Virus record (IMG/VR): IMGVR_UViG_3300037010_000217
Length of the DNA: 20,000 bases
Origin: an uncultured virus (IMG/VR IMGVR_UViG_3300037010_000217)
Lineage: Duplodnaviria > Heunggongvirae > Uroviricota > Caudoviricetes
Reading direction: 5' to 3' (one strand)
Shown here one piece after another: positions 5,171 to 13,520 of the stretch (the first letter of the stretch is position 1; each line of letters opens with the position of its first letter). The position numbers and the translations under genes were made by a program. The notes under the pieces were generated by a model. It was not told the DNA's origin. It ran no database searches and saw nothing but the letters and a program-made list of their open reading frames with translations.

Positions 5171-6907
5171 TTACGATAGAATGTATTTAGCAGATTGCAT
5201 CTTAACGTCAAGATCATCACATAGTTTCTCAATCTTAATATCTTCACCAGATATTTGAGATAAGATACTAGACAGGTAATCTTTTTTAGCTAAGTCGATC
5301 ATGATATCTTTAAAGATACCACGCATTTTCTTAGCATTGTTTGGGTGACACACGAATGAGTCATGGATATGAACTACTTCAAATGGACAACGTCTAATGA
5401 GTTCTCTTGCTACCATAGCATCAAAGCTATGAGTTAGATTAGCCATTAGGTGTGTATACGATCCTGAAGCACCTAATACACTTTTAGTATATTCAAAGGT
5501 TACATCATCTTCTAATGTTACCATCAAGGTTTCATTGTAAGAGTGACGTAATACTACTTCAAAGCCATCAGGCATAGTCCATCTATGCTCAGCTGTATCT
5601 TTCCATATAGAAGGAATAGCTTCTAATAGCTCACTTGGGCCAGTAAAACCTTTACTAATTGCCTTATAGAATGCCTTTAACTGATTCTCATTAAATGCTT
5701 TCTTAGGTGTAGCAACAGAGTTATACCAATGAGTCATGAAAGGCTTCTTAGCTTTATTACGATCTACAGCATCAGTTGCTGATAATTCGCTATTCATAAG
5801 ATTTACCACATATGAATACACATCTTCACGTTTACCTGTATCTATTAAATTTACTTTAGCAGCTGTGGTTTCGCATCCAGTCAGTGCAGCTAAGATCTGC
5901 AGACCAGAAGCTGTACAGTCCCACATTACAGGTAGACCAATAGGCATACCATCTAATGCATCTAAATATGCCATTACAGCCTTTGTGAATAGAATTGGTT
6001 CTGCTATATCATCTAAGTCTATGGTTACTTCACCATCCACTACAGATACTTTAGAAGCTACTAGTTCATATCCTTTAGCTAAGCGATCTGTCCAAGATAG
6101 TTTATCGTAGCCTGCTGTGTTAGCAATCCACATAACTATTTCTTCTAGACCTTCCTCAGTGCATACTTCTGCTTTAGCAAAGTTAAGTGTAGCTTTGTGG
6201 TACTCACTGGATTGTAGATTTAACTCATACCCTTTTGAATACATACGACCACGCTTGTCATACTGCCACATAAAGTAGAATTTTCTATCTCCTATATCAT
6301 CTACTACGTCCTTAACCTTCTTCTTATCATAAGAAGTTACATCTTTAAACGTATCAGTAATATAACGATCTAGTTTAAACCCTACAGACTGTAGCTTGTT
6401 TAGTACTGGTAGACAGATCTCACCATCATGGTGATTCTTACTACCTAGTAGAGCACTGTGCTTAATGGTGTAATAACCTCCGTTATTATTAGAGGTCCAG
6501 CTTTTAGGCTCTACTAATAGTGGTGGTAGAACTGTTGTCTGAGCTAGTTCTTGCTCTTGAGCATGTGGTAGAAATATATTGTTCTTAATATATAAACTAC
6601 CTTCATTAGATTGGATAATGGTATAAATACCGCTTTTAGCACCTACCATAAGGTAATCTTTCTTGATTACCTCCTCTGGTTCAACGCATAACAAACTAGC
6701 TAATCTAGCTATAAGCCCTTGAATAGGCTTATTCTTACTATTCTCTAGTACAGCTAGTAGTAAAGCTGCTGCTACTTCCTCAGTCATACCTAACTGAGTT
6801 AGTACTAATGTGTCTGTGCTATCAATTAGATCATAAATTCTAGAGGTAGCTAACCTCTTAGAGTATTTGTTCTCTAATTGGATTTGTAATTCATATAAGT
6901 TTTGCAT
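5171..6907 (-). CDS. T7-family single-subunit DNA-directed RNA polymerase, N4 RNAPII-like (gp15+gp16 equivalents in one ORF)
   Basis: DKRGRMY (DxRGR), motif A WDCTASGLQ, motif B RNKAKKPFMTHWY, W(T)MPDGF, ANLTHSFDA, motif C IHDSF; C-terminal YILS resembles the N4 gp16 end as I recall it; GAGGA RBS. Confidence 0.93.
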   Translation of the reverse strand: MQNLYELQIQLENKYSKRLATSRIYDLIDSTDTLVLTQLGMTEEVAAALLLAVLENSKNKPIQGLIARLASLLCVEPEEVIKKDYLMVGAKSGIYTIIQSNEGSLYIKNNIFLPHAQEQELAQTTVLPPLLVEPKSWTSNNNGGYYTIKHSALLGSKNHHDGEICLPVLNKLQSVGFKLDRYITDTFKDVTSYDKKKVKDVVDDIGDRKFYFMWQYDKRGRMYSKGYELNLQSSEYHKATLNFAKAEVCTEEGLEEIVMWIANTAGYDKLSWTDRLAKGYELVASKVSVVDGEVTIDLDDIAEPILFTKAVMAYLDALDGMPIGLPVMWDCTASGLQILAALTGCETTAAKVNLIDTGKREDVYSYVVNLMNSELSATDAVDRNKAKKPFMTHWYNSVATPKKAFNENQLKAFYKAISKGFTGPSELLEAIPSIWKDTAEHRWTMPDGFEVVLRHSYNETLMVTLEDDVTFEYTKSVLGASGSYTHLMANLTHSFDAMVARELIRRCPFEVVHIHDSFVCHPNNAKKMRGIFKDIMIDLAKKDYLSSILSQISGEDIKIEKLCDDLDVKMQSAKYILS

Positions 6908-7690: not shown

Positions 7691-7713
7691 ATTCCACAAC
7701 TCCGAGACCCTAA
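7691..7713 (-). promoter_or_regulatory. Putative phage-RNAP early promoter, copy at 7691
   Basis: ATTCCACAACTCCGAGACCCTAA, 22/23 identical to the 7315 copy. Confidence 0.75.
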
Positions 7714-7736
7714 GAGACTATTTGATAAGTGTATTT

Positions 7737-7886
7737 ATGTGTGCATTAAACATGTGTGCAAATAGATGGTATAGATTATTGTCTATGGTGTGTGCATAAG
7801 GTATAGAGTATTGATTATGTATGTGTGCTGTATTTAGGAATGAATGATAATGATGTGTGTGATAGGACTAAGGATATATTTAGGAA
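7737..7886. repeat. Dispersed short direct repeats in a C-poor non-coding tract
   Basis: TGTGTGC at 7738, 7753, 7789, 7822 (TGTGTGT at 7854); GGTATAGA at 7768 and 7800; TATTTAGGAA at 7831 and 7877. Confidence 0.7.
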
Positions 7887-7932
7887 AAATATTCTTATAA
7901 ACTATGTTAGTTTTAACAATAGTTAAAAATTT

Positions 7933-7965
7933 AAGAAAAAATAAACCTACCCAATAAAGGGTAGG
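7933..7965 (-). terminator. Rho-independent terminator after the first early gene
   Basis: CCTACCC-loop-GGGTAGG stem (7946-7965) followed on the minus strand by TTTATTTTTTCTT. Confidence 0.8.
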
Positions 7966-7972
7966 AATAAGC

Positions 7973-8170
7973 TTATTTACGTAAGCTTGCTAACAGGCTA
8001 TTAGACTGCTTAGCTTGGGTCTCTTCGAGGCCCCATTTACTCTCTTCTAACAGAGAGAGTAATGCTTTTGTATCAATGTCTTTAGGGACATTTACAAAGA
8101 TAGGAAGGTACTCGATAGTACCGTCTTGATTTACAACGTAAATTTTATGTCCAACGTATGTTGTGTTCAT
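7973..8170 (-). CDS. First early protein (65 aa; start revised from 8272)
   Basis: GAGGT RBS before ATG 8170 (MNTTYVGHKIY...); the longer ORF would run through the promoter copy and hairpins. Confidence 0.75.
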   Translation of the reverse strand: MNTTYVGHKIYVVNQDGTIEYLPIFVNVPKDIDTKALLSLLEESKWGLEETQAKQSNSLLASLRK

Positions 8171-8204
8171 AATAATAAATACCTCAATTAAGATTAAATA
8201 ATAA

Positions 8205-8227
8205 ATACCATAACTCAGAGACTGTAA
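8205..8227 (-). promoter_or_regulatory. Putative phage-RNAP early promoter, copy at 8205
   Basis: ATACCATAACTCAGAGACTGTAA, 19/23 identical to the 7315 copy. Confidence 0.7.
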
Positions 8228-8231
8228 AAGG

Positions 8232-8330
8232 TTAAGCGTGAGCTTAAGTTTGTACTTCTTTATGAAGTACAACTAGGGGGGGGTATACCCTCCTCACTGT
8301 GTATACAGTGGTAAGTAATACACTTATACC
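8232..8330. repeat. Cluster of five abutting inverted repeats at the early/late divergence point
   Basis: TTAAGC-GTGA-GCTTAA; TTGTACTTC-TTTAT-GAAGTACAA; G8-TATA-CCCTCCT; CACTGT-GTAT-ACAGTG; TAAGT-AATAC-ACTTA. Confidence 0.8.
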
Positions 8331-8395
8331 AAAATTATAAAATTCCAAAAAAGTTTTCATACCAAAAATAAAAAATTTCTAAAAACCTGAAAAAG

Positions 8396-8425
8396 TTGAC
8401 TATAACCTATCCTTAATGCTATCTT
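8396..8425 (+). promoter_or_regulatory. Sigma70-type late promoter with extended -10
   Basis: TTGACT (8396-8401), 18-bp spacer, TGc-TATCTT (8417-8425), with upstream A-tracts; N4 late genes are transcribed by host sigma70 RNAP. Confidence 0.65.
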
Positions 8426-8452
8426 ATAAACACTAGGTATAGAGGAACATTT

Positions 8453-9178
8453 ATGGAACAAGAAGTATTAGATTCGCAGGTAGTTACTCCTACTATCAGT
8501 GATGATCTACTCAAGAACAGTTTACCTAAACATCTAAGAGGGTTAGTCACTGACTCCTTGGTTTCTACTGTTAACAGTATTGCTAATACAGATGGAGTGA
8601 TGAGAGAAAGCTTTAGAGATAATCTCATTGGTTACATGCATGTATTGCAAGATGGTAAGTATAAGATTCAAGATTACATTAGTGCTGTAAGATACTGTAG
8701 CTATAGACTAATGGGTAGAGGTATTAGTGATAGTTATCGCAGTACATTCCCAGATAGATATGCTAGACTAATTCAAGAAGGTGCTAGTGCTAATCATATC
8801 AGTGGTTTTGCTAGTGCTTATAATAAGAATAAACTAGTTAACCTCATTATGGAACAGAGTTTAATACCTACTTATGTATTGAACCAAGACATCTATCAAG
8901 AAGCTATTAATGTACAAGCAGAACTAATGAGAACAGCTAATAGTGAGAAGGTTAGAAGTGATGCTGCTAACAGTTTACTGACTCATCTAAAACAACCTGA
9001 GACTCGGAAGATTGAGATTGAAATGGGTGTTAAAGAGAGTAAGAGTATTGATGAATTAAGAGAAGCTACTAGAGCATTAGCTCAAGCTCAATTAACTGCT
9101 ATTAGTACAGGTGCTATGAGTGTAATTGATGTAGCTCATAGTAAAATTATCCAAGGTACATGTGAGGAACAAGAGTGA
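8453..9178 (+). CDS. N4 gp69-like conserved protein (putative terminase small subunit)
   Basis: SEKVRSDAANSLLTHLKQPE and YISAVRYCSY segments, size and position upstream of terL match the N4-like gp69 family as recalled; GAGGA RBS. Confidence 0.75.
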   Translation: MEQEVLDSQVVTPTISDDLLKNSLPKHLRGLVTDSLVSTVNSIANTDGVMRESFRDNLIGYMHVLQDGKYKIQDYISAVRYCSYRLMGRGISDSYRSTFPDRYARLIQEGASANHISGFASAYNKNKLVNLIMEQSLIPTYVLNQDIYQEAINVQAELMRTANSEKVRSDAANSLLTHLKQPETRKIEIEMGVKESKSIDELREATRALAQAQLTAISTGAMSVIDVAHSKIIQGTCEEQE

Positions 9179-9528
9179 TGTTAAAGCATAAAGCTGTTAG
9201 TTTATTTCTAGAGAAGTTTAGAAATACTGGTGAGATTAGAGATATAGGCTCTAAGAAGAGTAAAGCTATCTTTGAGAAGATCACACTAGAGAATCTAGAA
9301 GATATTACTAAGATCATGAGATATAACGCTAATGGCTCAGTGTATATGCCTATCGTAGAAGAGATTGATTTAGAAGGTAAAATTGCTAGATGCGATATGA
9401 TACTAGTAAACTATAAGGAAGATCTTATTGGTTTGTATCTAGGTATTGGATACTTTGATGTACCAGAAGAAGGTACAATATTAATAATCAATAAAGAAAA
9501 CCTAGATCTATTGTATCCCTTGGTTTAG
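9178..9528 (+). CDS. Hypothetical protein (~116 aa)
   Basis: TGATG coupling to the upstream gene (alternative GTG start at 9175). Confidence 0.7.
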   Translation: MLKHKAVSLFLEKFRNTGEIRDIGSKKSKAIFEKITLENLEDITKIMRYNANGSVYMPIVEEIDLEGKIARCDMILVNYKEDLIGLYLGIGYFDVPEEGTILIINKENLDLLYPLV

Positions 9529-9554
9529 TTGTTAATGTTTATAGGAATGATGTG

Positions 9555-10103
9555 ATGAAGATTGATAGTACAGTGTTGAAGTTAATGCAGAAACAGATTA
9601 GCGTAGAAAATGCTAATCATTTAGTTTATATTGAATTAGCTAATTGGTGTTCATTTAATGGGTATGATAATGCCGCTGAGTTATTTACTAAACAAGCTGA
9701 AGGTGAGTTAACTCACAGAGACAGATTCAGAAGTTACTTGCTGGATCTTGGCTATATGCCTGATGCATTTACTTTGAATAAGTTTGATTATGGTGTTATT
9801 GAAAACTTAGAAGATACTGTATTTGCTGCATTAGCTTTAGAGCAGAATACTACTAAACAGATTCTAGCTATTAAAGAAGCTGCTAATGAATCTGATGACT
9901 ATGTAAGTTCAGAAGAGTCTAATTGGTTCTTGGCTGAACAGAGAGAAGAAGAAAGTCTGTTTATTGGTTTAGTAGATAAGATCAATCAAATGAAGTTATC
10001 AGATAGTTCTACTCCTGAGTGGTTCAAAGGTTCTTTACGAATTGAGTTAGATGAGTATATGGATCCTGATGATTCTGACGATTCTGAAGAGACTGATGAC
10101 TAA
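9555..10103 (+). CDS. ftn: Ferritin (FtnA-type, non-haem)
   Basis: Ferroxidase-centre pattern: QISVE..HLVY (E17/Y24), QAEGELTH (E50/H53), ALALEQ (E94), WFLAEQREEE (E126/Q127/E130), E. coli FtnA numbering; AGGA RBS; alternative GTG start at 9552. Confidence 0.88.
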   Translation: MKIDSTVLKLMQKQISVENANHLVYIELANWCSFNGYDNAAELFTKQAEGELTHRDRFRSYLLDLGYMPDAFTLNKFDYGVIENLEDTVFAALALEQNTTKQILAIKEAANESDDYVSSEESNWFLAEQREEESLFIGLVDKINQMKLSDSSTPEWFKGSLRIELDEYMDPDDSDDSEETDD

Positions 10104-11686
10104 TGAGTAAACCTATAAAGCAATCTGTAGAGCATTGGCTTAATGCTGTTGACTACGGGAATGATATTAACTATGTCCCTAGTGAGTTCTCACTAGAGTT
10201 TGTTAACTTTATTAAGTTGGTTAATGGCAATGAAGGAGAAGAGAACTTAACCCCTATTATCCATTATAAGATGTTGGATCAGATTGCTGGAGGTAAGTCT
10301 AATACACTTAATATGTTATTCCGTGGTTCAGGTAAGACTACTGTATTTGGTGAGTATATGTTTTTATATCTTGCTACTTATGGGGAATTACCTGACTTTG
10401 GTAGAATTGATCTAGCTATCTATGTAAGTGATAGTATAGAGAACGGTGTAAAAAATATGAGGAAAAACTTAGAATTTAGATGGGAGAATAGTGAGTTTTT
10501 ACAGCAATACGTCCCTGAAGCTAAGTTTACTGATATTAGGTGGGAGTTTACTAATAAAGATGGGAAGAAGCTCATCATCAAAGGGTATGGTGCATTAACT
10601 GGTGTTCGTGGTAGTAAAGAGATGGGTAAGAGACCTAACTTTGCACTACTAGATGACTTGGTTTCTGATGATGGTGCTAGAAGTCCCACAATTACAGCCA
10701 GTATTGAAGATACTGTATATAAGGCTATTGATTATGCATTACATCCTACAAGACGTAAAATTATTTGGAACGGTACTCCGTTCAATAGTAATGACCCTTT
10801 ATACAAAGCTGCTGAATCAGGTGCATGGTATGTCAACGTGTTTCCTGTGTGTAATACTTTTCCGTGCAGTCCAGAAGAGTTTAGAGGAGCGTGGGAAGAT
10901 CGATTTACATATCAGTATGTTAAAGATCAATACGATAAAGCAGTCCTTGCAGGAAAGGTAGATAGCTTCATGCAAGAGTTGATGTTAAGAATTATTAGTG
11001 ATGATGATAGGTTAGTCTTTGATCATGACTTAGTGTGGTACGATTCTAAGAGAGTTCAGCAGAATAAAGAAAGGTTTAACTTCTATATTACTACTGACTT
11101 TGCTACTAGTGAAGGTAAGGCTAGTGACTTTAGTGTTATAAGTGTATGGGCTTATAATAATAATGGTGATTGGTTACTGGTAGATGGAATTTGTGCTAGA
11201 CAGTTAATGGATAAGAACATTGATGATCTATTTAGATTAGCTCAGATGTATAGACCTCAACAGGTAGGTATTGAGGTATCTGGTCAACAAGGAGGTTTTA
11301 TCTCTTGGATCTATGATCAGATGACTACTAGAAATATCTACTTTACTCTGGCTAGTGAAAACAATAACGGTAGAGCTGGTATTAGACCCGCTACTAATAA
11401 GATGGAAAGATTCAACGTAGTACTTCCCTGGTTTAAGACTAAGAAAATTTGGTTACCAGAAGATATGCGTGATCATCCTCTAGTGTTAGAACTATTAGAA
11501 GAGTTGAGATACGCTTCACCTAAAGGTTTTAAAAGTAAGCATGATGATGCTATTGATACAGTGTCTATGTTAGCTAAACTAAGCCCCTGGAAGCCTACAG
11601 AAGAGACTGTAAATACAAAGACAGGTGATATGTTTGAAGATGAGCCTGAATTGACTGGCGGAGCTTATAGCTCGTATATTGTATAG
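10103..11686 (+). CDS. terL: Terminase large subunit, N4 gp68-like
   Basis: Walker A FRGSGKTT, Walker B ALLDD, GTP motif, nuclease TTDFA and HDDAID; 527 aa. Confidence 0.95.
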   Translation: MSKPIKQSVEHWLNAVDYGNDINYVPSEFSLEFVNFIKLVNGNEGEENLTPIIHYKMLDQIAGGKSNTLNMLFRGSGKTTVFGEYMFLYLATYGELPDFGRIDLAIYVSDSIENGVKNMRKNLEFRWENSEFLQQYVPEAKFTDIRWEFTNKDGKKLIIKGYGALTGVRGSKEMGKRPNFALLDDLVSDDGARSPTITASIEDTVYKAIDYALHPTRRKIIWNGTPFNSNDPLYKAAESGAWYVNVFPVCNTFPCSPEEFRGAWEDRFTYQYVKDQYDKAVLAGKVDSFMQELMLRIISDDDRLVFDHDLVWYDSKRVQQNKERFNFYITTDFATSEGKASDFSVISVWAYNNNGDWLLVDGICARQLMDKNIDDLFRLAQMYRPQQVGIEVSGQQGGFISWIYDQMTTRNIYFTLASENNNGRAGIRPATNKMERFNVVLPWFKTKKIWLPEDMRDHPLVLELLEELRYASPKGFKSKHDDAIDTVSMLAKLSPWKPTEETVNTKTGDMFEDEPELTGGAYSSYIV

Positions 11687-11704: not shown

Positions 11705-11998
11705 ATGGGTAATGTTTATTACATAAAACTTGATGCACAAAATATGGTAGTAAAAAGTATAGTGTATCCTAATACTACATCAGATGCTATTGAACACCCT
11801 CCTGCAGATATGATTGATGTAACAGAACAAATGAAAGATAAAGACCCAAAATCCTTCTCAAGGAAGATAACAAAAATTACTAGTAAGCCTAATAAAATGC
11901 TATATTTTATTAATGGAGAGTTCCATGTTATTGATAGATACTCATTTAATGATGCTATGAAATTAGAGAAGTTATTAGAAAATGATAGTGTAGATTGA
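11705..11998 (+). CDS. Hypothetical protein (97 aa)
   Basis: AAGGA RBS; N-terminus YYIKLDAQNMVVKSIV resembles small tail-fibre-associated phage proteins (weak). Confidence 0.7.
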   Translation: MGNVYYIKLDAQNMVVKSIVYPNTTSDAIEHPPADMIDVTEQMKDKDPKSFSRKITKITSKPNKMLYFINGEFHVIDRYSFNDAMKLEKLLENDSVD

Positions 11999-12010
11999 AG
12001 GTACTAAGTT

Positions 12011-12616
12011 ATGTTTAAAATTATAAAAGTACCTTCAGGAGATTCTGCTATAATCCAATCAAGTAGCTATGATTTGTATACCTATACTGTGTATGTAGGT
12101 AAGCATGAAATAGATATTCCTTTAGGTGATTCTCTATGGCTAGTTAATGATACTCAAGCTAGTGTATGTAGAGGTGGTACTAAAGTTAAAAGTGATTCTT
12201 TAGCTGTACTGCTTAGGGGTTATCAATGTGAAAGCAAGTCATCTAATTATGAAAGTATTGTTAATTTACCTTATATTAATGGTTGTAGCTCACAACAAAT
12301 ATTTCCTCCTGTAAGACCTGGTGATCCTACATTACAATTACTATACTTACCTAAAGGTACTTCAGAACAAGCTCATCATATACATTCAACTGTTAGAGTA
12401 GTTAAAGTTATTAGTGGAAGTGGTTATAGTGTTCAAGGTATGACAGATGAAGTAAAAGTACCACTAAATCCTGGTGATGTTCTAGTACTGGATAAAATGA
12501 CACCACACCATTTTGTTACTGAAGATGACTATTTACTTGTAGCACCTATACATGTTTATAGTTCTACAGCATTAGAAAAAAATCACCCAATGCGTAATGG
12601 TACGTTTGAAATTTGA
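12011..12616 (+). CDS. Cupin-domain metal-binding protein
   Basis: Cupin motif 1 QAHHIHSTVRVVKVISGSG and motif 2 LNPGDVLVLDKMTPHHF. Confidence 0.85.
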   Translation: MFKIIKVPSGDSAIIQSSSYDLYTYTVYVGKHEIDIPLGDSLWLVNDTQASVCRGGTKVKSDSLAVLLRGYQCESKSSNYESIVNLPYINGCSSQQIFPPVRPGDPTLQLLYLPKGTSEQAHHIHSTVRVVKVISGSGYSVQGMTDEVKVPLNPGDVLVLDKMTPHHFVTEDDYLLVAPIHVYSSTALEKNHPMRNGTFEI

Positions 12617-12629
12617 TAGGAGTATTCGT

Positions 12630-13520
12630 ATGTTAGGTCTTGAAAATTCACCAGATTCTAGAAGATTTTTTAAGTTTTTTGGTGTAATACCTTGTGATAG
12701 AACAGGTACTTTAGAAGGTCTAGTTAATACTGTAAACACTATCCCTACCAACGAAGATAGAATTACATATGCAAACATTACTTTTCAAGAATGTATTGAT
12801 ATGCAAATTGAAAAAATTAAAGCACATCCAATTAAAGATAAAGTACTTCTTTGGAGTGGTGGTATAGATTCTACTTTAGTATTTTATGCTTTAGTTGCTG
12901 CTGGTATTGAGTTTAGTATAGGTATGTCTGTATCATCTGTTAAAGAGTATCCGATGCTTGCTGAACAAATACAAGACGATGTTACAGCAGCACCAGAAGA
13001 TAAAAGGTTTCCTACACTCTTAGGTTACGAATTTATTAAAGAAATGCCTGAAAAATTCTTAGACAATAAACTAGTAATTACTGGTGAAATTGGAGATCAG
13101 CTGATAGGTAGTATACTGATGTTGAACTATACTGATCAACAAAGATGTATGCCTTACGATGAAGTATTAGATGTCAATGAATATGGTTTATTCGATGACG
13201 TTATAAAAACATTAGTCAATACTGATAGCCTAACATTAGGTGAATTTTTATGGGGTATGAATTTTATATTTAAGTATCAGGATGTGTTGGATAGGATTCC
13301 TAATAAACCTTTCTTTGGTATTGGTAGTGTTGCTTTTAACTTTTTTGATAGCATACCTTTTCAAGTATGGAGTATGAATAATTATAAACAAAATGCTAAT
13401 TTTAGTAAGCAAACTGATTACAAAAAAGTATATAAGCAGTACATCTACGATAATAACAATGATGAATTGTACTTAAAGTATAAGCGTAAAGTAGGATCTT
13501 TAGTGCAAATTAATAAATAA
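12630..13520 (+). CDS. Asparagine-synthetase-like ATP pyrophosphatase (synthetase domain only)
   Basis: PP-loop LLWSGGIDST and VITGEIGDQLIG (cf. AsnB SGEGxDExFGG); no N-terminal Cys glutaminase domain. AGGAG RBS favours ATG 12630 over 12597. Confidence 0.8.
   Translation: MLGLENSPDSRRFFKFFGVIPCDRTGTLEGLVNTVNTIPTNEDRITYANITFQECIDMQIEKIKAHPIKDKVLLWSGGIDSTLVFYALVAAGIEFSIGMSVSSVKEYPMLAEQIQDDVTAAPEDKRFPTLLGYEFIKEMPEKFLDNKLVITGEIGDQLIGSILMLNYTDQQRCMPYDEVLDVNEYGLFDDVIKTLVNTDSLTLGEFLWGMNFIFKYQDVLDRIPNKPFFGIGSVAFNFFDSIPFQVWSMNNYKQNANFSKQTDYKKVYKQYIYDNNNDELYLKYKRKVGSLVQINK

Follow-up and report, generated by a model that had tools for sequence, protein, structure and literature searches.

Why would a bacteriophage keep a ferritin gene between its terminase genes? 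The question is raised by a 20,000-nucleotide stretch of DNA from an uncultured virus of the Caudoviricetes (IMG/VR record IMGVR_UViG_3300037010_000217; the whole stretch is called the window below), in which an open reading frame (ORF) on the + strand at 9555-10103 ends on the start codon of terL, the gene for the terminase large subunit. An earlier note on the window had read this ORF as a ferritin wedged into the packaging operon and coupled to terL. The analysis described here shows that the protein is a divergent ferritin of the Ftn type, and that its gene is a real, selected and dispensable module. New are the position of ferritin genes close to terL, portal or major capsid genes in 14 of the 31 IMG/VR contigs examined (N4-like, Crassvirales-like and others) and a virus-typical replacement of the iron ligand Glu49, the loss of which is common in viral ferritins.

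A divergent ferritin with a changed third iron site

The ORF listing gives the gene as 9552..10103 (+ strand, 183 aa), starting with GTG. An in-frame ATG is present at 9555, with a Shine-Dalgarno-like AGGA (9543..9546, +) 8 nt 5' of it. In IMG/VR contig L001, the one IMG/VR relative that keeps the synteny (terS-like gene, orf116, ferritin, terL, orf95, cupin, PP-loop; ferritin 83% identical), the GTG position reads GTA, leaving the ATG as the sole start at the same spacing from AGGA, and we therefore place the start at the ATG, giving a product of 182 aa (9555..10103, +). This product matches the full Pfam Ferritin profile (PF00210, E 6.8e-19, 68.6 bits against a cut-off of 24.5, residues 9-146 on profile positions 2-142 of 142) as well as PHROG 16594, which has no assigned function (E 3.7e-17). 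Among all PDB chains the best sequence matches are the FtnA-type structures 9bye, 4xgs, 1eum, 4reu and 3qz3 (E 1.6e-19 to 1.9e-16; 1.6e-19 to 5.2e-18 for the first three), in agreement with the FtnA-like label that the protein had been given.

Iron ligands were mapped through the 1eum alignment, using the Escherichia coli FtnA (EcFtnA) ligand definitions of PMC7762939 (statements on cited papers refer, here and below, to excerpts of these papers). The earlier note had described the ferroxidase ligands of sites A and B as apparently intact and the Glu49 equivalent as glycine, and both descriptions hold: site A (EcFtnA Glu17, Glu50 and His53) corresponds to E18, E51 and H54, site B (Glu94 and Glu130) to E96 and E132, and the second-shell residues Tyr24 and Gln127 to Y25 and Q129, while Glu49 corresponds to G50 in the motif QAEGELTH. 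As Glu126, Glu129 and Glu130 are kept as E128, E131 and E132, the protein has three of the four ligands of a complete prokaryotic site C (E49, E126, E129 and E130). This site sets bacterial Ftn apart from H-chain ferritin and bacterioferritin (Bfr) (PMC4653698), although a complete site C is not required for membership of the ferritin family.

The AlphaFold2 model, built from a 17-row alignment, has a mean pLDDT (predicted local distance difference test) of 92 and a predicted TM-score (pTM) of 0.86, and consists of a four-helix bundle (helices 5-34, 38-64, 85-112 and 116-145) with a long BC loop (65-84) and a short helix E (155-168). A Foldseek search of the PDB placed Vibrio cholerae and E. 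coli Ftn on top (target-normalised TM-score, TMt, 0.85-0.92 over 167-175 aligned columns), and all 50 matches listed were ferritins or bacterioferritins. Two neighbouring families were considered and rejected: a bacterioferritin because Leu52 occupies the haem-Met position, Glu132 is not His, and TIGR00754 scores 18.6 bits against 125.55; and a Dps mini-ferritin because helix E is present, the intrasubunit ligands are complete, and the 50 listed PDB fold matches are Ftn or Bfr. With E-values far under threshold, independent synteny and a ratio of non-synonymous to synonymous substitution rates (dN/dS) of 0.19, the ferritin assignment is beyond chance.

Prediction of two copies gave an interface score (ipSAE) of 0.67 (0.66, 0.70 and 0.67 in the separate runs) and no more than 0.00 in any of three controls; 20/30 solved one-chain pairs and 1/23 solved single chains reach the mark used for this score. 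Contacts agreed between runs to at least 90%, with a partner pLDDT of at least 89, and involve residues 19-34 and 59-76, i.e. helix A, the end of helix B and the BC loop, which we take to be the classical ferritin two-fold interface. Ferritin dimers have been solved many times over, and the prediction therefore shows likeness rather than binding.

Position in the packaging operon of an N4-like phage

The stop codon of the ferritin gene (TAA, 10101-10103) shares its last A with the start codon of terL (ATG, 10103-10105). This one-base overlap, TAATG (10101..10105, +), is conserved in L001 and physically couples the two genes, as had been noted from the window. terL itself (10103..11686, +; phrog_38, E 1.2e-94) encodes an N4-like protein 61-65% identical to Schitoviridae TerL of Erwinia, Acinetobacter, Pseudoalteromonas and Pseudomonas phages, and matched 544 phage records in total. 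The packaging block opens with a gene for a 241-aa N4 gp69-like or small-terminase-like protein (8453..9178, +; phrog_2109, E 6.3e-89), which also weakly matches phrog_2538, 'terminase small subunit' (E 6e-4). The window thus belongs to a phage of a new lineage, N4-like and of the Schitoviridae type.

Acinetobacter phage XC38 and Alteromonas phage PT15-A5 have no gene between terL and the terS-like gene upstream of it (annotated as terminase small subunit in PT15-A5, and as hypothetical protein in XC38); in the window, two ORFs stand between them, orf117 and the ferritin gene. This ferritin was present in none of the 544 TerL-matching phage records, and a tblastn search with the ferritin against 50,697 phage records gave only two matches, both Staphylococcus-labelled and at 32% identity. 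Ferritin is thus not present across the isolated Schitoviridae, and the earlier statement that it lies outside the N4 core gene set stands. The GC content is flat at 0.33-0.35 across the ferritin gene and its neighbours, without compositional anomaly, and a consensus scan detected no convincing terminator between 8453 and 11686.

A clade restricted to viruses and metagenomes, and the loss of Glu49

A phmmer search of 1.84 billion protein representatives gave 758 matches at E ≤0.001, only three of which were at ≤1e-30. Five representatives (P0010-P0014, 39-50% identity) span the whole length including helix E, in which P154, K158, R162 and L165 are invariant and W156 is nearly so. The ten representatives looked up all come from metagenome assemblies, on contigs of at most 10.6 kb, and none from an isolate genome. 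No cellular relative above 37% identity turned up among 185,579 species scanned at one genome each, and the 80 loci of a metagenome scan were all at or below 36%. ORFs were listed for eight loci of these two scans: contig L026 looks phage-like, and the other seven, judged without PHROG, are cellular-looking.

The phylogeny against host ferritins that had been suggested as a check was made as a quick IQ-TREE tree of 65 rows, leaving out eight near-duplicates (P0001, P0003, P0005, P0006, P0007, P0009, P0012 and L193). The window groups away from the 33 cellular rows, in a group of 14 viral or metagenome rows with no cellular member; SH-aLRT support is 88 for this group, 93 for its inner 13 rows and 98 for the N4-like subgroup. 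The clade of the window ferritin is thus known solely from viral and metagenome contigs, and is at most 37% identical to the cellular ferritins sampled.

Ligand conservation was followed in a MAFFT alignment of 73 rows (33 cellular, 40 viral or metagenome). The A and B ligands, the Tyr and the Gln are kept in all rows but P0015 and P0017, hence in 38 of the 40 viral or metagenome rows. Glu49, by comparison, is replaced in 26 of these 40 rows versus none of the 33 cellular rows; several rows are closely related, so that these are not independent events, and the cellular rows are the best matches of a pattern-based scan rather than a random sample. By context, the position holds Glu in all 33 cellular rows; Gly in seven, Asp in one and Glu in four of the 12 viral rows from head modules; Gly in one and Glu in three of four other viral rows; Glu in all three rows of the L181-type lineage described below; and Gly in 12, Asp in four, Thr in one and Glu in four of 21 metagenome rows of unknown context. 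The free quick tree requires four state changes at this position. A single clade of all 21 rows lacking Glu49 is not rejected in an approximately unbiased (AU) test (p-AU 0.79), and constraining the tree to such a clade gains 14.5 log-likelihood units over the quick free search; the group was, however, chosen with the data in view, and long branches are involved. Contigs L006 (Gly) and L008 (Glu) share both the portal family and the slot of the ferritin gene, which suggests that the change may also have occurred more than once.

Selection and natural variation

A collection of 5.8 billion proteins contains nine close homologues (72-95% identity), all from metagenome sources. Between the window and L001 the dN/dS is 0.19 for the ferritin gene (dS 0.61) and 0.08 for terL, and the ferritin is under purifying selection. 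Fourteen public sequencing runs from nine studies were found to contain the region, all as DNA contigs of microbial-mat, sediment and hydrothermal-vent metagenomes, with shares of 0.86, 0.68, 0.57, 0.31 and 0.31, and at most 0.15 for the remainder; no RNA run with positions 8453-11686 was among them. The vent runs have a different upstream neighbour. Four of the runs (X2-X5) were compared with the window at 85% likeness, and the ferritin bins were covered in all four. One contig each in X2 and X3 carries a joint from 9527 to 10089 that skips 561 nt, with the same 16 other letters in between (depth 7.0 and 7.8, side 49). In this variant the ferritin ORF is gone, while orf117 and the last bases before terL, from 10089 on, are retained, and it is this clean absence that marks the ferritin as accessory. 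Recent transfer from a host was rejected as an origin, given the flat GC content and the lack of a near cellular homologue, and so was an assembly chimera, given the synteny with L001 and the cover in four runs.

The extra acidic tail claimed for the protein is indeed there: DPDDSDDSEETDD forms residues 170-182 (codons at 10062..10100, +), and residues 174-182 have a pLDDT below 50, so that the disordered acidic tail comprises the last 9-13 residues. Its length varies among homologues (proteins of 173-197 aa), and it is absent or short in the clade members P0004, P0008 and P0009; of 11 close homologues, counting the window and L001, the last two residues are DD in nine and KD in two. The tail is also length-polymorphic within natural populations (window positions 10061-10100): X2 contains an 18-nt deletion (joint from 10061 to 10080), and in X2 and X3 loose ends at 10061 continue into a longer, L001-type tail. 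The tail codons contain GAAGAGA (10086..10092, +), a Shine-Dalgarno-like element for terL, at a place where L001 has AAGGA; part of the conservation of these codons may thus belong to the terL initiation region.

Ferritin genes near terL, portal and capsid genes of other phages

Two scans of IMG/VR gave 31 distinct contigs with a ferritin gene (11 plus 20 new). Flanking genes were searched with PHROG for L003, L005, L006, L007, L008, L012, L178-L182, L185, L186, L193, L196 and L197, plus metagenome contig L026, while L004, L009-L011, L183, L184, L187-L192, L194 and L195 were placed by their ORF architecture alone, with look-alikes. In 14 of the 31 contigs the ferritin gene lies within two ORFs of terL, a portal gene or the major capsid protein (MCP) gene, and these cases span at least seven gene orders and six portal or terL PHROG families. 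Ferritin precedes terL in L001, the portal gene in L003-L005 (phrog_1216) and in L007 (phrog_2662). It follows terL and portal in L006, L008 and L009 (phrog_6547) and in L180 (phrog_2739), and L010 and L011, which are cut at the contig start, have the same ORFs downstream of ferritin as L008, the gene order of which also recurs in L026. The remaining orders are terL, an ORF of 89 aa, ferritin and portal (phrog_156) in L182; terL, 99 aa, ferritin, 118 aa and portal in L179; and portal, 214 aa, ferritin, 387 aa and MCP in L197.

The ferritins of L003-L005 are 48-51% identical to that of the window and lie directly upstream of a portal gene. The product of this portal gene shares 68% identity with the 'N4 gp59-like' portal of Alteromonas phage AD45-P1 and has 743 matching records, mostly N4-like. 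As the window ferritin is found before terL and those of L003-L005 before portal, the same ferritin clade occupies two packaging-gene junctions of N4-like phages; AD45-P1 has an unrelated 110-aa gene in the ferritin slot. The L008-type portal matches crAss-like phages and Cellulophaga phage phi14:2 at 32-35% identity, and the portals within this group are only 29-35% identical to each other. That the ferritin slot is kept despite this divergence speaks for long retention of the gene in these Crassvirales-like contigs.

Other contexts were found in L012, L178, L185 and L196, all of which exceed 95 kb. The flanks of the ferritin gene in the 13 contigs of the L181-type lineage (L181, L183, L184 and L186-L195; 21-254 kb) have no Pfam or PHROG head annotation. 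The L181-type ferritins keep Glu49 and are encoded on the strand opposite to their neighbours, among ORFs of about 360, 520 and 650-690 aa and a phrog_4191 peptidase. Two further observations were made on the head-module contigs. The portal ORF of L003 (5536-8652) encodes 1038 aa versus 674 aa in L005, and the insert of about 360 aa (413-772), which matches 'terminase large subunit' PHROGs 19299, 36964 and 15, is probably an intein or another self-splicing insert. The 118-aa ORF of L179 (5041-5397) matches the Acb2/Tad1 hairpin domain (PF24729, E 1.8e-8; phrog_2428), and by this match is likely to encode an anti-CBASS/Thoeris sponge in the gap between terL and portal.

One reading of this distribution is that ferritins recur in the head and packaging modules of phages and have long been kept there, before terL or portal in N4-like phages, after portal in Crassvirales-like phages and in at least three other gene orders, that many of them may come from a virus-restricted lineage which gave up the site-C ligand Glu49, and that they act at capsid assembly or DNA packaging itself. 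Such ferritins could be a procapsid-associated or encapsidated iron-oxidising cargo, or a dedicated guard of the DNA being packaged. Encapsulins share the HK97 capsid fold of phages, and some carry ferritin-like cargo; if true, the reading would differ from that of a generic metabolic helper, and would provide a viral counterpart of ferritin-loaded encapsulins. We nevertheless hold it to be decidedly unlikely. Since contigs enter IMG/VR by their hallmark genes, head modules are over-represented among the short ones, and only two of the six contigs above 65 kb with annotated flanks (L007 and L197) show a head-module ferritin.

Possible functions of the ferritin

The reading that we favour, and think probable though far from assured, is that of a late, abundant ferroxidase cage which removes Fe(II) during virion production. 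Subunits would pair through the canonical two-fold interface and, by homology, form a cage of 24. In Ftn cages Fe(II) is oxidised at the A/B centre and stored as a ferric mineral (PMC7762939, PMC4653698), and the di-iron centre of the window protein (E18, E51, H54, E96 and E132, with Q129 and Y25) would do the same, the mineral being deposited in the cavity. Glycine at the Glu49 position would take away one of the four site-C ligands and so weaken that site. EcFtnA variants in Glu-49 or Glu-130 oxidise iron more slowly, at an Fe:O2 ratio of about 2:1, and regenerate the centre faster (PMC4653698), and some Ftns have a greater flux out of the centre without site C (PMC7762939); by analogy with these variants, the window ferritin would show chemistry near 2:1 and a faster turnover of its centre. 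In a ferritin cage, the end of helix E lies at the four-fold axis and points to the cavity. The acidic tail that follows it would then project into the cavity and supply carboxylates for cation binding or core nucleation. As its gene lies in the packaging operon, where the overlap would couple its translation to that of terL, the protein would be made late and in bulk, during DNA replication and packaging. In hosts of iron-rich, low-oxygen habitats (mat, sediment, vent), the phage would benefit from a smaller pool of labile Fe(II), and its DNA would suffer less Fenton damage while being replicated and packaged. This would fit an earlier suggestion for freshwater phages, among whose genes for preventing reactive oxygen species (ROS) a ferritin is listed (10.1101/670067).

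Several results weigh against this proposal. The score for the NCBIfam FtnA equivalog (NF007638) is 72.7 bits, below the cut-off of 178, so that function cannot be transferred by equivalog rules. Site-C substitutions in Pyrococcus furiosus Ftn abolish oxidation (PMC4653698), and the activity of the window ferritin could thus be impaired rather than tuned. The loss of B-site ligands from the clade members P0015 and P0017 indicates that the clade tolerates inactive forms. The habitats are deduced from the contigs of a few studies, with the top run possibly being the source of the window itself, and the ferritin-less variant consists of one short contig per run, at 85% likeness.

Of the other explanations, the one that fares best is an iron reservoir, in which the cage would hoard iron and later release it to late iron-dependent enzymes of phage or host, such as the cupin encoded 1.9 kb downstream, or keep it available in the virocell. 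The His-rich metal motifs of this cupin speak for it, as does the proposal that a giant-virus ferritin regulates iron availability in virion production (PMC7136201). However, homologues of the cupin, of the PP-loop protein encoded next to it, and of orf117 and orf97 were found, within the flanks searched, at only one of the 31 other ferritin loci (L001). The suggestion that the ferritin serves the neighbouring cupin therefore fails as a general rule at 30 of these loci, and the proposed co-occurrence check in related phages returned L001 alone. There is also no reductase or Bfd-like release partner to be seen (orf117 has one Cys and no family), and the habitats listed are not obviously iron-poor, which together make a reservoir on the whole unlikely.

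A physical association with the capsid or the packaging machinery, either as procapsid cargo or assembly partner as in encapsulins or through contact of the acidic tail with terminase or portal, would account for the 14 contigs with a nearby terL, portal or MCP gene and for the slot behind the diverged Crassvirales-like portals. The need for stoichiometric high expression would, however, alone explain why ferritins have settled in head modules, and the 14 cases are subject to the hallmark-gene bias described above. No capsid-targeting motif is common to the lineages, and the tail is absent or short in some clade members and varies within populations. In the BFVD structure database, long proteins of uncultured Caudovirales match the ferritin model weakly (E 7e-3 to 0.19), with the annotations 'DNA-binding protein Dps' (290-622 aa), 'Ferritin/DPS domain containing protein' (679 aa) and 'Prohead protease' (333-763 aa); the Dps and prohead protease entries that could speak for a link to the capsid match at E 7e-3 to 8e-2. 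All of these proteins may be fusions of a ferritin-like domain to a head-maturation protein, or contain no more than a helical scaffold domain, and they offer a lead only. A search for fused forms of the ferritin found none, in itself weak evidence. We regard a physical association with the capsid or the packaging machinery as clearly improbable.

Very unlikely, in our view, is counter-defence or host manipulation, whereby sequestered iron or an altered peroxide output would disable iron-dependent immunity or stress signalling: the ferritin gene is a presence/absence polymorphism and the Acb2/Tad1 ORF of L179 illustrates that slots between ferritin and portal can hold anti-defence genes, but L179 is a single case in 31 contigs, nothing ties the ferritin directly to a defence system, and the late timing expected from the gene position better suits protection of progeny than early counter-defence. 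That the gene is a neutral or decaying passenger without a role in infection is most improbable, since its dispensability in natural relatives and the ligand losses of P0015 and P0017 are set against a dN/dS of 0.19 at a dS of 0.61, complete A and B ligands in 38/40 viral or metagenome rows, fully ameliorated GC content and a position long kept in Crassvirales-like contigs.

Comparison with known ferritins

The ferroxidase cage favoured here has its closest structural counterparts in E. coli FtnA (1EUM, 4XGS, 9BYE) and V. cholerae ferritin (3QZ3), which have the same fold (TMt 0.85-0.92) and share with the window protein the A/B ligands, Tyr24, Gln127 and three of the four site-C ligands; the two-fold interface predicted for the window protein resembles theirs. 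The window protein differs from both in being only 24-26% identical in structural alignment, in scoring below the equivalog cut-off, in the change of Glu49 to Gly, in its own clade-conserved helix E, in the acidic tail of 9-13 residues and in being encoded by a phage. An altered or absent site C is also known from SynFtn of marine picocyanobacteria, for which a role in stress response rather than storage has been suggested (PMC7762939). SynFtn, likened here by description only, lacks all site-C side chains, whereas the window protein lacks only Glu49. The cellular BfrB of Mycobacterium tuberculosis (PDB match, E 1.1e-4) has a C-terminal extension that affects ferroxidase activity (PMC3072985) and that is, as far as seen, unrelated to the tail described here.

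Ferritins of viruses have been read as auxiliary genes for iron homeostasis or against ROS in freshwater phages (10.1101/670067), myxophage MV-2 (10.64898/2026.09.14.751636) and giant viruses (PMC7136201), and the UniProt entry 'Putative bacterial non-heme ferritin [uncultured marine phage]' matches our model with a TMt of 0.87. In the excerpts of these reports none of the virus ferritins is N4-like or biochemically characterised, and neither a head-module position nor loss of site C is mentioned; their comparison with the window protein was made only through BFVD structures, at 19-20% identity. Lactobacillus phages and 'Gratiaviridae' carry Dps-like members of the ferritin superfamily, proposed to limit oxidative damage (PMC6669764, PMC8008677), but these are mini-ferritins encoded near replication genes, whereas the protein encoded in the packaging operon of the window is a maxi-ferritin, in which each subunit has an E helix and a di-iron site of its own. 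In the literature that we searched, no N4-like phage is reported to carry a ferritin and no ferritin gene to adjoin terminase or portal genes, although preprint supplements may list such cases; nor did we find Glu49 loss described for viral ferritins, or a phage ferritin studied biochemically.

The window ferritin thus comes from an ordinary protein family, but from a subgroup restricted to viruses; its third iron site is altered, its helix E is distinct, it ends in an acidic tail, and the position of its gene is unusual yet recurrent. To specialists in ferritins or auxiliary metabolic genes the gene itself will come as no surprise, while the recurrence in head modules and the change at site C are unexpected and can be tested. 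So far phage ferritins are entries in lists of auxiliary genes, with no biochemistry in the reports as excerpted, and the locus described here offers a clean test case, being a compact and, judged by its ligands, apparently active ferritin tied to terL, with ferritin-less relatives in the same samples. Should the head-module link and the Glu49 loss hold in an unbiased census, they would point to a specific need for fast iron oxidation during packaging, and would also tie the biology of phage capsids to that of encapsulins loaded with ferritin, which have the same fold as the capsids. A small cage with a built-in acidic tail, as modelled here, might also be of interest to protein engineers.

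Neighbouring genes

Upstream of the first ORF of the packaging block, a consensus scan detected a σ70-like promoter match (8396..8425, +; TTGACT-18-TATCTT with TG before the -10 element, 9/12 positions). This is weak evidence for a promoter, since the region holds fewer promoter-like sites than shuffled sequences do (19 versus a mean of 34.7). orf117, which together with the ferritin gene separates the terS-like gene from terL (9175..9528, +), is 75% identical in L001 with a dN/dS of 0.12, but has no match in Pfam, PHROG or NCBIfam, and an atlas search yielded only unnamed clusters (at most 0.90).

A second lineage-specific cassette follows terL (11705..13520, +) and is present in L001. It consists of orf97, a gene for a His-rich cupin of 201 aa (12011-12616, +; Cupin_2, E 7.4e-7) and, overlapping it, a gene for a PP-loop/QueC-like ATPase of 307 aa with an SGGIDS motif (12597-13520, +; phrog_1550, E 1.5e-4). 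Neither the cupin nor the PP-loop protein has a tblastn match in the 50,697 phage records. Both are conserved in L001 (dN/dS 0.17 and 0.18, respectively), and the cassette may encode a modification pathway. On the opposite strand to the packaging block lies an ORF for an N4-like RNA polymerase (5171-6907, -; 578 aa; phrog_2051, E 2.6e-84; phrog_2166, E 6e-57), and the two blocks diverge at about 7700-8450, where terminator-like hairpins are clustered.

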